From: Minisyncoccota bacterium
GTDB taxonomy: Bacteria; Patescibacteriota; Minisyncoccia; Minisyncoccales; CG1-02-41-26
Assembly (NCBI GenBank): GCA_028718785.1
Contig: JAQULB010000003.1
Coordinates: 74,228-138,227 of the forward strand
Reading direction: 5' to 3'
Length of the DNA: 64,000 nt
Made by a program: the position numbers and the translations under genes
The notes under the pieces: model-generated
Databases searched by the model: none
Seen by the model: only the letters and a program-made list of their open reading frames with translations
What the model was told of the DNA's origin: nothing
Shown: positions 8,362 through 61,598 of the stretch, piece after piece
Layout: every line of letters starts with the position of its first letter
Position numbering within the stretch: the stretch's first letter is position 1

Positions 8362-8370
8362 TGGTATAAT
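8362..8370 (+). promoter_or_regulatory. Possible extended -10 promoter (TGgTATAAT) feeding element copy 1 and the HK gene
   Basis: TGGTATAAT directly abuts the TAAGTAATCC start of the element. No well-spaced -35 is present. Confidence 0.3.
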
Positions 8371-8627
8371 AAGTAATCCGTTAATGAAAGCGAGCTTTTG
8401 AGCGAAGCTTGAATTTACGGATTACTTACCCCGTGAAGTAAGATTTGAGGATTTTTCAAAAAGTGTTTCGTTTTAAGTATTTAATTATTTTTTCTCTTGC
8501 GTAATATTGATAAATTTATTCTCAAATCTTAATTTTAAATTTACTAATTTAAAACTACTTCACAGGGTGTAAGAACTCGTAAATTCACTCGTGGCTAATC
8601 GCCGCTCACTCATTAACGATTTCTAAC
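8370..8627 (+). repeat. Stop-to-start intergenic hairpin-array element, copy 1 (H1+H2+H3)
   Basis: H1 is TAAGTAATCCGT...ACGGATTACTTA (8370-8428). H2 arms are CCCCGTGAAGTA (8429-8440) and TACTTCACAGGGTG (8557-8569). H3 is TAAGAACTCGTAAATTC...CATTAACGATTTCTAAC, ending at the ATG at 8628. Confidence 0.85.
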
Positions 8628-9560
8628 ATGCTAGACTCTCTCAACCCTGTTTCATCTTGTAAAAAATATGGCGTTTCTCTTTGGCAATGTCCGCAGTTTT
8701 TATTTTTGGTAATGGGTATTGTTATTATAATTGCCATTATAGTTACTTATTTTTTAACAACTCTTCGCGTTGGAGATCCATCAATTGTAAGTTTGCTGGT
8801 TTTGGGAGTGGGAGCTTTTTTGTTAATAATGAACTTTATTATCACAAACAGCTTTGAAAGAATGGCTGAGGCTTCAAAACTAAAAAGCGAATTTATCCAC
8901 ATTGTTTCCCATCAGTTAAGAGCGCCCTTAACAAATATAAAATTTTCTTTGGATTTTTTAAATTCAGCTAAAATGACTCAAACCAAAGAACAACAGCAAG
9001 AGTATTACGATATTTTAAAAGAGAATTCCGATAGAATGAATGATTTAATAGACAACCTTTTAACTGTGGCAAAAATTGAAAGTGGCTCTTTTCCTTTATC
9101 AAAGTCAGAGGTGTTTATAGAAAATATTGCCCAAAAACTTATCCAAAAATTCAAACCTTTTGCCACAGCTTCCAATATTAAGTTAATGATTTTTTCAGCA
9201 GACCACTCTTTAAAGGTTTTAGCGGATCCTTTATGGATTGAACAAGTAATGGAAAACCTTCTTGATAACGCTATAAAATATACGAAAGGAGGGGGTGAAG
9301 TGAGCGTAAAAGTTTACCAAAAAAAGAAAAAAGTTTTTTATGAAGTTCATGATAATGGGGTAGGTGTGCCAAAAAAAGACCAAAAGTTTGTTTTTCAAAA
9401 ATTTTTCCGTTCAAATAACAGTTTTAAAAAACAAACCGGAGGAACTGGATTGGGCTTGCATATTGCCAAAAGAATTGTGGAAAAAACAGGAGGAGAAGTA
9501 GGTTTTTTTTCAAAAGAAAATAGGGGTTCAACATTCTGGTTTAGTTTGCCAATTAAGTAA
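8628..9560 (+). CDS. Sensor histidine kinase
   Basis: Two TM segments are followed by a HisKA H-box (FIHIVSHQLRAPL) and HATPase_c motifs (DNAIKYT, DNGVGVP, GGTGLGLHIAK). Confidence 0.85.
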   Translation: MLDSLNPVSSCKKYGVSLWQCPQFLFLVMGIVIIIAIIVTYFLTTLRVGDPSIVSLLVLGVGAFLLIMNFIITNSFERMAEASKLKSEFIHIVSHQLRAPLTNIKFSLDFLNSAKMTQTKEQQQEYYDILKENSDRMNDLIDNLLTVAKIESGSFPLSKSEVFIENIAQKLIQKFKPFATASNIKLMIFSADHSLKVLADPLWIEQVMENLLDNAIKYTKGGGEVSVKVYQKKKKVFYEVHDNGVGVPKKDQKFVFQKFFRSNNSFKKQTGGTGLGLHIAKRIVEKTGGEVGFFSKENRGSTFWFSLPIK

Positions 9561-9816
9561 TCCGTTATTGAAAGCGAGCCGTCAACCCAGTAGGTCATTC
9601 TACTGAATGAGGCGAAGCTTGAAATTTACGGAGGACTTACCCCGTGGAGTATAAATTTGCTCTGCAAATTTATATTTTAAATTTTTTACTAAAAATTTAA
9701 AATTACTCCACAGGGTGTAAGAATTCGTAAATTCACTCGCCTAGTTAAATGTCCTTCGGGCAATTTCGCTGAAAGCGAAATTATTTAATCGGACTCATTC
9801 ATTAACGATTTCTAAC
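9554..9816 (+). repeat. Intergenic hairpin-array element, copy 2
   Basis: TTAAGTAATCCGTTATTGAAAGCGAGC overlaps the last HK codons and its stop. H2 arms are at 9640-9651 (CCCCGTGGAGTA) and 9704-9717 (TACTCCACAGGGTG). The element ends CATTAACGATTTCTAAC-ATG. Confidence 0.85.
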
Positions 9817-10194
9817 ATGAAAAAAATATTACTAATTGAAGATGAGGGAGCTTTGCAAAAAAGTTTAGGAGACACTTTCCGCGGAGCTGGTTTTGAGGTT
9901 TTGAGCGCTTTAGATGGTGAAGCAGGCGAAAGATTGGCAAAAAAAGAAAAGCCGGATTTGATTATTTTAGATTTAGTTTTGCCCCAAAAAGACGGGTTAG
10001 ATGTTTTTCAGGCATTAAAAGACGACCCAATAACAAAAGATATCCCAGTGGTTATTTTAACTAATCTTGAAAGAATAGAGCATGTGGAAAAAGTTTTAGA
10101 AATGGGCGCTAAAACATACTTGGTGAAATCAAACTATACCCTAAAAGAAATATTAGAAAAAGTTAACCAGGTCTTATCGAGTCAGAGCCAGTAG
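9817..10194 (+). CDS. Receiver-only response regulator (CheY-like)
   Basis: The sequence reads MKKILLIEDE...DLIILDLVLPQKDG...K, and there is no output domain. Confidence 0.85.
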   Translation: MKKILLIEDEGALQKSLGDTFRGAGFEVLSALDGEAGERLAKKEKPDLIILDLVLPQKDGLDVFQALKDDPITKDIPVVILTNLERIEHVEKVLEMGAKTYLVKSNYTLKEILEKVNQVLSSQSQ

Positions 10195-10429
10195 GCGATA
10201 GACGAGATTAGAGCTGGTTAACTCTGTGGAGTATTTTTAAATTTTTAGTAAAAAAATTTAAAACAGAAATTTTCTCTGAAAATTTCTACTCCACGGGGTG
10301 TAAGAATTCGTAAATTCATTTCATTCATTAACGACTTAAGGAATATCCCGATTAAACGCTTTATGAGAGAGCGTTTAACAGGATCTAAGAATTCGTAAAT
10401 TCATTTCATTCATTAACGACTTCTAAGAC
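10192..10429 (+). repeat. Intergenic hairpin-array element, copy 3 (variant H1, H3 duplicated)
   Basis: H2 arms are CTCTGTGGAGTA (10222-10233) and TACTCCACGGGGTG (10287-10300). TAAGAATTCGTAAATTCATTTCATTCATTAACGACTT occurs twice. The element ends CTTCTAAGAC-ATG. Confidence 0.8.
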
Positions 10430-60414: not shown

Positions 60415-60446
60415 AACCCACCCGTTAAAGCGGGTGGGTTTTTTAA
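60415..60446. terminator. Bidirectional terminator between recA and rpsR
   Basis: AACCCACCCG-ttaaag-CGGGTGGGTT has A and T runs on both sides. Confidence 0.8.
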
Positions 60447-60472
60447 ATGACTTGATAACTCAATTATTTGTT

Positions 60473-60670
60473 TTATGGTTTAACAAATGGCAGTAAAGCT
60501 AAAAAGCGGGCCCTTTTTACGGCTTGGGCTAATTTTCTTTGGTGTTTGGCGCAAAGGTTGGTTTTTTTTCTGGCTTTGATTTTTCCAGACAAAGCTAAAA
60601 ACCTTCTTTGAGTTAAAGTGTCTTTAAAGTCGATTTCTTTTTGATTTTTTTGGCAATAATAACAATGCAT
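60473..60670 (-). CDS. rpsR: 30S ribosomal protein S18
   Basis: The 65-aa protein reads ..IDFKD...L.RF....GKI..R..T.LCAKHQR.L..A.KRAR.LALLPF. Confidence 0.9.
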   Translation of the reverse strand: MHCYYCQKNQKEIDFKDTLTQRRFLALSGKIKARKKTNLCAKHQRKLAQAVKRARFLALLPFVKP

Positions 60671-60862
60671 GTTAGAGATTTGTTAATTGAGCGGTGAGCT
60701 TGCGAGACCGCGAAATTTACAAGCTCTTACACCCCGTTAAATAAAATTTGAGTACAAATTTTAATTTTAAATTAGCAAATTTAAAATTATTTAACAGGGT
60801 AAGTTCGTGTTTCTAAATTTTTTTGCTCTAAAATCGGGCTCGTAAATTTAGACACTCACTTA
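60671..60862 (-). repeat. Intergenic hairpin-array element, copy 10 (ssb-rpsR, minus strand)
   Basis: On the minus strand, H1 is TAAGTGAGTGTCTAAAT...ATTTAGAAACACGAACTTA. The H2 arms are variants, CCCTGTTAAATA / TATTTAACGGGGTG. H3 has stems GAGCTTG/CAAGCTC and GCGGT/ACCGC. The element ends CAATTAACAAATCTCTAAC-ATG. Confidence 0.8.
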
Positions 60863-61378
60863 AAATGGGATATCCTTTACATCAATTTCTTCATCATCTA
60901 TCAAACCCTCGCTTGAAATTGGCCCTGGGTTTTTGGCCTCTTCTTCTTCAATAACCGGTATTTCCGGCTCTTGTTGGGGCGATTGATTTGGCCTTGTCCC
61001 TGCTTGTGATTGGAAACCTTCGCTATTATAATTTCCGCTTCCTGATTGACCAGATGATCTTGGGCCAAACTGCACCCTATCGGCAATGATTTCGGTTTTA
61101 TAATGTTTTTGGCCTTGTTGATCTTGCCAATTTCTTGTTTTAAGGCGACCCTCCACCAATAAACTTGAGCCCTTTTTTAGATATTGGGCAATAACCTCTG
61201 CTTGTTTTCCAAATGCCACAACGTTATGAAATTCAACCTCTTCTTGCTTTTGGCCATTGGAAATATACACCCTGTTTGTGGCAACCCCCAAAGAAACAAC
61301 TGCCATGCCCGAAGGCAAACTTTTTCTTTCTGGATCGCGTGTTAAATTTCCAAAAATAATTGCTTTATTGAGAAACAT
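60860..61378 (-). CDS. ssb: Single-stranded DNA-binding protein
   Basis: It has an OB-fold N-terminus (NKAIIFGNLTRDPE...VEFHNVVAFGK.AE) and an acidic tail ending DIPF. Confidence 0.92.
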   Translation of the reverse strand: MFLNKAIIFGNLTRDPERKSLPSGMAVVSLGVATNRVYISNGQKQEEVEFHNVVAFGKQAEVIAQYLKKGSSLLVEGRLKTRNWQDQQGQKHYKTEIIADRVQFGPRSSGQSGSGNYNSEGFQSQAGTRPNQSPQQEPEIPVIEEEEAKNPGPISSEGLIDDEEIDVKDIPF

Positions 61379-61598
61379 ATTAGAAGTCGTTAATGAAGCG
61401 AAGCGAATTTACGAATTCTTATACCCCGTTAAGCGCGAGCCTGCCCGCAGTGCTACAGCGTTGCAGGTGGGCGATTAGGTTAAAGCCATACTATGGCTTT
61501 AACGGGTAATTTAGCAAAATACTTTTTGCGTAAAATTACCCAGTTTAAACCTTAATTATTTATATCCGCTACTTAACTGGGGTGGGGTAGAATTTTTA
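61379..61598 (-). repeat. Intergenic hairpin-array element, copy 11 (rpsF-ssb, minus strand)
   Basis: On the minus strand, CCCCAGTTAAGTAGCGG...CGCGCTTAACGGGGTATAAGAATTCGTAAATTCGCTTCGCTTCATTAACGACTTCTAAT runs up to the ATG. Internal hairpins are GGGTAATTT/AAATTACCC and GTTAAAGCCATA/TATGGCTTTAAC. Confidence 0.75.

Follow-up and report, generated by a model that had tools for sequence, protein, structure and literature searches.

A putative new family of mosaic palindromic repeats placed directly upstream of start codons in Patescibacteria

The stretch of DNA analysed here (the window) comprises 64,000 nt of contig JAQULB010000003.1 from the Minisyncoccota bacterium assembly GCA_028718785.1. Its GC content is about 36% and non-coding DNA is almost nil. 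Twelve copies of a hairpin-rich, palindromic repeat element lie in this window. They had been described before in a reading based on the DNA letters alone (the sequence-only reading), all of them were found again at their places, and together they make up about 2.56 kb, or 4% of the window. Pfam was run on about 50 window proteins. According to this analysis, the genes flanking the elements encode a histidine kinase, a response regulator, PilB, PilC, PilM, PilO, a PKD protein, PilT, pseudopilins, LigA, RpoB, RpoC, S6, SSB and S18 (rpsR, 60473-60670, minus strand), which bears out every gene name given earlier. In the window, 12 of the 21 co-directional gaps of at least 60 nt are occupied by an element, and none of the convergent or divergent gaps is. 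The explanation that we favour, and consider fairly probable, is that the copies represent a new family of mosaic palindromic repeats of the BOX, BIME, REPIN or ERIC kind, transcribed in operons and confined to the space upstream of start codons.

Module maps of 70 elements describe the element as an array of one to five abutting, self-folding modules, each 40-100 nt long and AT-rich (GC 0.26-0.45). Two covariance models were built in this analysis, R1 for module H3 and R2 for module H1. They match the window copies at 40-81 bits, with lower scores for the divergent copies. An arm of a third module, H2, CCCCGTGAAGTA, occurs 21 times when up to two mismatches are allowed, compared to 1.98 expected occurrences and a maximum of six in shuffled sequence. 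The modular H1-H2-H3 layout proposed earlier was found as described, but two additional modules, the simple hairpins D and E, had been missed, and copies 6, 8, 9 and 12 are incomplete (Table 1). The folds of copies 7 and 10 consist of three hairpin domains without linkers; the first domain has the stop codon paired at its foot, and the last has nucleotide -1 paired there. A second pilus cluster in the window (13672-19242), which includes pseudopilins and a further PilM at 16609-17682, is free of the element; its genes overlap or lie 6-24 nt apart. Not all operons are therefore occupied by the repeats.

Table 1. Position, module content and supporting scores of the twelve elements and of the -10 box preceding copy 1 (positions of the window; all scores in bits unless indicated otherwise).
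Feature	Position	Strand	Modules	Evidence
-10 box	8362..8370	+	extended -10 TGGTATAAT; final T = base 1 of H1 of copy 1	read from sequence
Copy 1, histidine kinase 5' untranslated region	8370..8627	+	H1 8370-8428; H2 8429-8567 (one sub-hairpin with long insert); H3 8568-8627; ATG 8628	R2 77.4, R1 80.9; H2 arms located
Copy 2, histidine kinase/response regulator gap	9554..9816	+	H1 9554-9639 (additional loop hairpin); H2 9640-9715; H3 9716-9816 (long inner hairpin)	R2 72.3, R1 61.8
Copy 3, response regulator/PilB gap	10163..10429	+	H1-type 10163-10221; reversed H2 10222-10298; H3 10299-10343; E 10344-10383; second H3 10384-10427; AC, then ATG	R2 34 (filters off); R1 39 and 62.9
Copy 4, PilB/PilC gap	12182..12409	+	divergent H1-type 12182-12240; H2 12241-12311; unclassified hairpins; 3' end AAGAATTTCTAAT before ATG	R2 20.7, E 0.006; R1 weak, 17.8; H2 arms located
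Copy 5, PilM/PilN gap	30690..31027	+	H1-type 30690-30748; H2 30749-30832; D 30855-30895; partial H3 and E-like 30896-30962; H3 30964-31025; AC, then ATG	R2 36.1, R1 43.9
Copy 6, PilO/PKD protein gap	32122..32186	+	H1-type hairpin alone	R2 24.9, E 3.5e-4
Copy 7, PilT/PilC gap	36405..36628	+	H1 36405-36463; H2 36464-36560; H3 36561-36628	R2 77.4, R1 57.1; fold z -12.3
Copy 8, between pseudopilin genes	40501..40687	+	H1 40501-40560 (perfect GUCCUCC/GGAGGAC stem); H2 40561-40636; stray arm 40650-40661; H3 absent	R2 73.2; arms located
Copy 9, PilX-like gene/LigA gap	41640..41745	+	H1 41640-41696; H2 5' arm only 41698-41709; truncated, without H3	R2 64; sequence read
Copy 10, RpoB/RpoC gap	49394..49598	+	H1-type 49394-49452; reversed H2 49453-49528; H3 49529-49598	R2 ~61, R1 51.5; fold z -9.4
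Copy 11, SSB/S18 (rpsR) gap	60671..60862	-	H1-like 60800-60862 (beyond the reach of R2); H2-like 60732-60799; H3 60671-60731	R1 45.1; S18 by Pfam
Copy 12, S6/SSB gap	61379..61598	-	D with nested inserts 61424-61585; H3 61379-61423; H1 absent	R1 61.4

H3 measures 47-105 nt. Its helix, AGAAYUCGUAAAU/AUUAACGAYUUCU, contains two invariant mismatches, is paired in 97-98% of the cells and shows double changes at 5-8 of its 13 pairs. The pair between position 2 and position -1 is G-C in 45 cases, A-U in 25 and C-G in 4, which means that the helix reaches the base before the AUG. Inside this helix lies a variable inner hairpin of 0-60 nt; a pseudoknot considered for the long H3 variants was replaced by the simpler solution of a long inner hairpin. 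H1 is a rod-like hairpin of about 60 nt, 96.8% paired, with double changes at 9 of its 20 pairs. Its lower stem is followed by a U.U pair, then by 3 bp, a tandem G.A/A.G, another 4 bp, a GA/GAA internal loop and 2-3 bp, and the apical loop is frequently a GNRA tetraloop. The compensatory stem changes mentioned in the sequence-only reading are thus present in both modules. H1 starts with TAA in 45 of 47 matches, and this TAA pairs with a UUA at the 3' end of the module. In 17 of the 47 it is the in-frame stop codon of a long open reading frame (ORF). In other cases the ORF stops at the second TAA of TAAGTAA, as the histidine kinase gene does in copy 2. The upstream stop codon is thus not always the 5' edge of the element. 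An ORF can also run into H1 and stop in its loop, as is seen in locus L027 (JAUSHZ01) and in copy 3, where the H1-type hairpin starts inside the response regulator ORF, covers its last ~10 codons and carries the stop codon TAG in its loop.

The two outer modules are related to each other. R1 matches H1 and R2 matches H3, each on the opposite strand and with 27-34 bits, corresponding to an inverted similarity of about 60 nt. Judging from these matches, H1 is an inverted paralogue of H3. [quoted passage not shown] A long-range helix between the H1 5' strand and the H3 3' strand was ruled out, as the local helices are 97% paired and covary. Moreover, the H1 5' variant in which AAU is changed to AGC (5 of 19) is compensated within H1, and H3 of the same elements is unchanged. 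In 39 of the 47 H1 matches, an H3 lies on the same strand 45-292 nt downstream, which makes H1 and H3 a REPIN-like inverted pair; the reverse arrangement was found in none. The sense strand of H1 is 6.3 kcal/mol more stable than its complement (17 of 18 copies) and has purine-rich loops, whereas in H3 it is the complement that is more stable, by 5.1 kcal/mol (45 of 45 copies), and the sense strand has pyrimidine-rich loops. Because of this difference, the RNA would carry a strong hairpin at the 5' side and a weak, G-poor hairpin next to the AUG.

H2 is a nested palindrome, a three-way junction with two conserved AT-rich sub-hairpins. It is found in both polarities with equal frequency, and the order of the sub-hairpins is independent of the polarity of the arms. 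In the window, H2 of copies 3 and 10 is reversed relative to copies 1, 2 and 7. The polymorphic arm pair, read on the sense strand, is C.A in 21 cases, U.G in 20, C-G in 17 and U-A in 4. H2 thus behaves as a DNA palindrome, and an asymmetry of the RNA type is not seen. The elements had been called always co-oriented with transcription. This is strictly the case for H1 and H3, but it fails for H2 because of these flips.

Placement relative to genes was determined with R1 over 664 kb. An ATG follows within 3 nt in 115 of the 117 R1 matches, namely at 0 nt in 102, at +2 in 12 and at +3 in 1, and all of these are co-oriented with the gene. The downstream ORF is complete in 101 cases and has at least 60 codons in 99. 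The remaining two have 38 codons, the length of L36, and L36 directly follows elements at other loci. Loci fetched with Ssb form a sample that was chosen by protein, independently of the repeat motif, and all 12 R1 matches in these loci end at a start codon as well. The claim that H3 ends exactly at the ATG therefore stands for the 102 of 117 matches at 0 nt; copies 3 and 5 add AC, and copies 8 and 9 have no H3. Likewise, all 50 matches of the 3' motif CATTAACGATTTCTAAC are intergenic and co-oriented with the downstream gene. No copy was found in a convergent gap, either in the window or among these 50 motif matches. Both orientations occur inside single loci of 8-20 kb, each matching its own gene, which confirms that the orientation of H1 and H3 tracks transcription. 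An orientation set by replication, as in IS200/IS605 elements, is excluded by this co-occurrence. Altogether, the surviving copies are confined to transcribed space upstream of a start codon, from stop codon to ATG in operons or from -10 box to ATG at operon heads, with H1 always facing upstream and the last paired base of H3 at position -1.

It is highly improbable that the elements serve the host at the DNA level, be it as binding or extrusion sites for HU and gyrase, as BIMEs in E. coli, or as uptake signals for type IV pili and competence. BIMEs bind gyrase and IHF, the sequence of H2 is kept in both polarities, and the window encodes HU and two pilus gene clusters. However, a function of double-stranded DNA does not explain the strict orientation of H1 and H3 with transcription, the absence from convergent gaps or the exact ends at the ATG. 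Furthermore, the motifs are sparse (about 1 per 3-5 kb) and confined to the elements, unlike uptake sequences.

A -10 hexamer ends exactly on base 1 of H1 in 11 of 36 distinct contexts, while other offsets account for 0-2. Seven of the 11 phased boxes have a TG extension, and copy 1, which had already been said to follow a promoter-like -10, is among the 11. Shine-Dalgarno sequences precede 5 of 56 genes, compared to a background of 7%. Their absence, which had been regarded as a feature of the element, is thus a property of the whole genome, and the suggestion that it is special to the element was rejected. The native leaders of this genome are A-rich and G-poor. The predicted accessibility from +1 to +20 is 0.57 for genes with H3 and 0.50 for genes without, so that about 200 nt of upstream structure would leave the start unburied. 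Most H1 3' strands (e.g., 9626-9634 and 40547-40555) contain ACGGAGGAC opposite GUAAUCC, with two A.G mismatches; a Shine-Dalgarno-like sequence is thus retained although this genome makes no use of Shine-Dalgarno sites. Its GGAGGA was considered as a possible ribosome tether; the DNA that was retrieved contains no 16S rRNA gene, and GGAGG is frequent in coding DNA. TATAAT lies just 6 nt ahead of the ATG of the HU gene (7226-7507), and the gene starting at 39434 looks alike. Because of this short distance, the position of TATAAT suggests that the HU mRNA is leaderless.

Whether the helices are maintained for the sake of the RNA was judged from wobble pairs. On the sense strand of H3, G.U-type pairs number 10 and A.C-type pairs 16. 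Since G.U pairs lack an excess, covariation is no proof of selection on RNA, and RNA-specific selection as judged by wobble pairs or by sense stability is not supported (10 vs. 16; antisense stabler in 45 of 45). Placement and phasing make the RNA-level role that had been derived from the stems plausible, but the covariation should not be attributed to selection on the RNA. Other known functions of small repeats were examined as well. Outward promoters as in Correia elements are not enriched (18, compared to 12.5 +/- 3.8), and H2 contains only weak TAAAAT matches. Terminator-like sites number 5, compared to 3.6 +/- 1.6 (8250-12450), and no module ends in a U tract, which dismisses an intrinsic terminator or attenuator; one weak terminator match lies within an H2 sub-hairpin of copy 2. 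Integron attC sites were dismissed because RYYYAAC...GTTRRRY cores do not occur in the right polarity, the window encodes no integrase, and the flanking genes are syntenic housekeeping genes (rpoB/rpoC, rpsF-ssb-rpsR).

Several searches were conducted to determine how widespread the family is. A 22-nt pattern spanning the H2/H3 junction was searched among 185,579 species representatives. It gave 35 stretches in 7 assemblies of metagenome-assembled genomes (MAGs), all belonging to Patescibacteria, also known as the candidate phyla radiation (CPR). The nearest species-representative genomes, including 'Candidatus Gribaldobacteria' MAGs, have 72-88% nucleotide identity to the window in genes. Judged by this pattern, the family is present in at least 7 related Patescibacteria/CPR species genomes. 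The H3 end followed by ATG occurs in 110 stretches of metagenome DNA, which come from numerous samples of groundwater and sediment. The viral contigs, phage genomes and plasmids that were searched gave no match to the element, which speaks against a phage or plasmid origin. A search of the whole window against Rfam returned just 8 tRNAs and DUF3800-V at the gathering threshold, and in E-value mode the best E-value for 8300-12450 was 0.86, in line with the earlier remark that the element belongs to no named RNA family. In the literature on small interspersed repeats of such kind in CPR or Gribaldobacteria, nothing relevant was found.

Comparison with relatives indicates turnover at individual sites, as had been supposed when the element was called MITE-like and mobile: orthologous sites are empty in relatives. 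Where the window has a pilT-pilC gap of 221 nt, the stop and start codons overlap as ATGA in JAUSHZ01. The pilM-pilN gap measures 335 nt vs. 5 nt, and the pilO-PKD gap 62 nt vs. 1 nt. For the gap that follows, the situation is reversed, with a 69-nt D+H3 unit in JAUSHZ01 and an unrelated spacer of 32 nt in the window. Whether a site is filled or empty, its stop and start codons have the same positions, so both codons are native. The pilT-pilC junction allows for microhomology of 1-3 nt (A/AT) and no clear duplication, as far as can be read from a comparison of diverged filled and empty pairs. The rpsF-ssb gap is empty in three relatives (4-11 nt), and four module combinations are found across seven genomes. 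Between ssb and rpsR, two relatives have, at the place of the element elsewhere, an ORF of about 220 aa with an HNH-like motif (..WAVDHIKPK..; loci L038, 10534-11199, and L044, 10512-11180), which is split into two smaller ORFs in L044. Modules are exchanged individually. Copies 1 and 7 share an H1 of 100% identity. Near-identical contigs from different metagenome samples also show such changes: three contigs with identical flanks, H1 and H3 differ in one H2 sub-hairpin alone, where two of the contigs have a GC-rich palindrome of 63 nt and the third has a short AT apex. In copy 12 and in PFAV01, for example, modules are nested within loops.

Individual copies do not appear to be conserved more than the family as a whole. 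Between the window genome and JAUSHZ01, identity at four-fold sites is 49%, near saturation, and the identity of orthologous H3 modules is 72-74%, compared to 72% for random paralogues. Purifying selection, as would be visible from orthologue conservation, is therefore not supported, as orthologous identity equals paralogue identity. From these comparisons, the family consensus is long-lasting, and individual sites turn over or are homogenised.

These data bear on the proposal that the element is a dedicated, vertically inherited and non-mobile cis-regulatory RNA with a specific protein or RNase as partner, serving operon processing, stability or translational coupling, the roles suggested in the sequence-only reading. 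Such an RNA would be expected to lie strictly in the sense orientation ahead of a start codon, as the element always does, and the covarying H1 and H3 helices with their invariant non-canonical positions, the GNRA tetraloops in several H1 apical loops, the phasing of the -10 box with H1 and a consensus retained across genomes with saturated synonymous sites would all fit. However, the proposal is already weakened by the empty orthologous gaps in relatives, including the ancestral-looking ATGA overlap, and the same gap holds different module sets in different genomes. Copies truncated on either side, without H3 or H1 (6, 8, 9 and 12), the flips of H2, the swapped sub-hairpins and the missing G.U excess do not fit either. 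In addition, orthologues are not more similar than paralogues, and the genes served are unrelated (pili, RNA polymerase, ribosomal proteins, ligase, phosphoglucomutase). We therefore regard this proposal as improbable.

Another explanation is that the element is purely selfish, i.e., a non-autonomous palindromic element of the PATE or REPIN kind that is moved by an HUH/Y1-type or other site-specific transposase encoded elsewhere. Such an enzyme could recognise a short strand-specific target, for instance CAT on the bottom strand, 5' of the ATG, or TAA on the top strand. With gaps of only 0-10 nt, just start and stop targets would be tolerated, and both the abutment to ATG and the orientation would follow without any RNA function. 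The 3' junction is indeed precise (0 nt in 102 of 117) and the 5' edge variable, with ORFs that sometimes enter H1. H1 and H3 are inverted paralogues, like transposon ends, mismatches are conserved within imperfect palindromes, modules are nested, and copies are present or absent between relatives. The missing sense-strand G.U excess and the occurrence of H2 in both polarities agree with this explanation as well, and REPIN-RAYT systems are known to persist vertically for long periods. On the other hand, Pfam revealed no transposase, RAYT or integrase among the approximately 50 window proteins, and a scan for IS200/Y1 motifs in 2016 ORFs (1.06 Mb of the window and loci of relatives) found none, although this crude motif search is a weak test. 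A full-length element with these ends was not seen, including downstream of solo H1 copies, and many units (D+H3, E+H3) have no second end. The target rule predicts neither the phasing of the -10 box and H1 nor the pairing of positions -1 and 2, and orientation follows the gene even among differing neighbours, which speaks against the replication strand as its determinant. Taken as the whole explanation, selfish insertion seems rather unlikely to us.

In the explanation that we favour, the repeats move as DNA and are tolerated solely as part of the mRNA leader ahead of start codons, where the element probably acts as a folded spacer and as a hairpin protecting the 5' end. The elements would be transcribed within the mRNA and each module would fold on itself. 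Owing to these self-folding modules, the spacer would be compact and the AUG as accessible as in genes without an element. If the RNA starts about 7 nt past the phased -10, its 5' end would fall inside the H1 stem, giving a 5'-terminal hairpin that is flush with the end. Inside operons, endonucleolytic cleavage could perhaps produce the same H1 hairpin. This hairpin would protect the downstream cistron from decay by RNase Y and RNase J, and H3 would supply a weak, G-poor last part of the leader. In bacteria with RNase Y/J decay machinery, 5'-terminal hairpins are known to stabilise mRNAs. RNase Y is encoded in the window (5456-6985) and RNase J in relatives.

A number of points weigh against this explanation. 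G.U pairs show no excess, and the antisense strand of H3 is the more stable one in all 45 copies. The upkeep of the helices could instead result from an effect of the DNA palindrome, from arm-to-arm correction or from recent descent. That orthologous H3 modules are no closer than paralogues fits turnover as well as constraint. As relatives manage with empty gaps, no individual site depends on having the element. Selection for folding also poorly explains the orientation, because H1 resembles the reverse complement of H3 and the RNA of an inverted copy would have a similar overall shape. A copying enzyme or mechanism was not identified among the window proteins by Pfam or in the 1.06-Mb motif scan. 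Finally, transcription of the elements, their RNA ends and an effect on expression are all deduced from the DNA.

A bolder explanation goes further and regards the element as a mobile 'UTR cassette' (UTR, untranslated region), which would be copied in the orientation of transcription to the 5' side of start codons and offer a plug-in leader for translation without Shine-Dalgarno sequences. In such a cassette, H1 would form a protected 5' hairpin or a site for RNase Y or RNase III, the back-folded array would keep stop and start codons near each other so that terminating ribosomes could re-initiate, and the H3 helix, ending at position -1, would present the AUG. We consider this possible, yet doubtful. 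If it is true, a selfish repeat became part of the way in which minimal bacteria build their operon mRNAs.

Other features were noted along the way. A defence-like island lies between tRNA genes (22333-28709) and encodes an N6/N4 DNA methylase, a ResIII helicase, an OLD-family nuclease (AAA_15+TOPRIM) and an Mrr-type endonuclease. At 53507-53594 (plus strand), where rpoC and a TrmB-family gene converge, a tRNA-Sec-like sequence in the gap matches RF01852 with 41.3 bits (E 4.9e-7), under the gathering score of 47. An acceptor-like stem of 9 bp, GCGGAGGTA...TACCTCCGC, precedes an ACCA. The sequence is not called by ARAGORN and could be an unusual (allo-type) tRNA. A DUF3800-V RNA (RF02964, 74.5 bits) at 45753-45848 (minus strand) directly follows a DUF3800 protein gene on the opposite strand (45047-45742, plus strand). 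Short direct repeats of CACAACCA/TAATTACAACCA units are present at 54880-54996 and 55564-55590, and a TATTTTGTGCGATCGC motif is repeated on either side of the gene at 54997-55563. In some relatives, RecA contains an intein with a LAGLIDADG domain (loci L036, 12362-14470, and L041, 2686-4794), which gives a protein of 702 aa compared to about 348 aa. Locus L036 additionally carries a reverse transcriptase and bAvd pair, which is typical of a diversity-generating retroelement.

Work on small interspersed repeats has dealt almost entirely with cultured Proteobacteria and Firmicutes. The genomes of CPR bacteria are very small and densely packed, and those discussed here lack Shine-Dalgarno sites as well. 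It is unusual that repeats take up 4% of a 64-kb stretch and lie inside the rpoB-rpoC and ribosomal-protein operons. Their restriction to the space just ahead of start codons, with a single orientation and an end at position -1, is equally unusual. If the placement rule reflects the insertion mechanism, it would point to a mode of transposition that is sensitive to the coding strand. If it reflects selection, it would show what a leader needs for translation and mRNA survival in organisms that cannot be grown so far. In related MAGs, R1 and R2 could be used to annotate the elements and to flag true start codons and operon structure, and they could also warn of likely assembly break points.

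Among the known systems, BOX elements of S. pneumoniae and S. suis (boxA-boxB(n)-boxC) are composite and modular like the element described here (Croucher et al., 2011, PMC3049150). Both have end modules of about 50-60 nt that are related as inverted repeats, and a variable number of self-folding modules in between, whose gain or loss leaves the remainder intact. Both are predicted to fold when co-transcribed, move slowly and can create or extend ORFs. However, BOX, RUP and SPRITE are over-represented between convergent genes (PMC3049150), whereas the present element is never found in convergent gaps and always has a start codon directly downstream, with one orientation only. Its internal module, a flipping nested palindrome, is different too. 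As for sequence, the Rfam, phage and plasmid searches gave no match, although boxA, boxB and boxC may be lacking from these databases.

REP/BIME and REPIN-RAYT systems resemble the element in that imperfect palindromes form inverted pairs or mosaics with conserved linkers, in extragenic but transcribed DNA. They also persist in a lineage for a long time while single sites turn over. REP hairpins stabilise upstream mRNA and affect translation near the stop codon. They are 20-40 nt long and GC-rich and lie mainly at 3' ends of transcription units, whereas the modules described here are 40-100 nt long, AT-rich and located upstream of start codons, in the sense orientation and abutting the ATG. 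Unlike in REPIN-RAYT systems, no RAYT was found in the approximately 1.06 Mb examined, by a crude motif search and by Pfam on window proteins. ERIC/IRU and Correia (NEMIS) elements are, likewise, MITE-like imperfect palindromes in transcribed intergenic DNA that are present or absent at orthologous sites, but they insert in both orientations, cause TA target duplications and occur as single units, not as arrays. Their effects on mRNA depend on orientation and involve RNase E for ERIC and RNase III for Correia (PMC3049150).

A functional analogy can be drawn with the 5'-terminal stabiliser hairpins of the ompA, aprE and ermC leaders and with the intercistronic RNase III sites of phage T7. A hairpin that is flush with the 5' end guards an mRNA from 5'-end-dependent decay, and irregular intercistronic hairpins of some 20 bp serve as processing sites, with protected ends as the outcome. 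These hairpins are single, locus-specific and non-repeated, whereas the element is repeated, and its processing or stabilising effect is proposed by analogy. The present family differs by its placement rule; no such rule has been reported for BOX, REP, ERIC or Correia elements.

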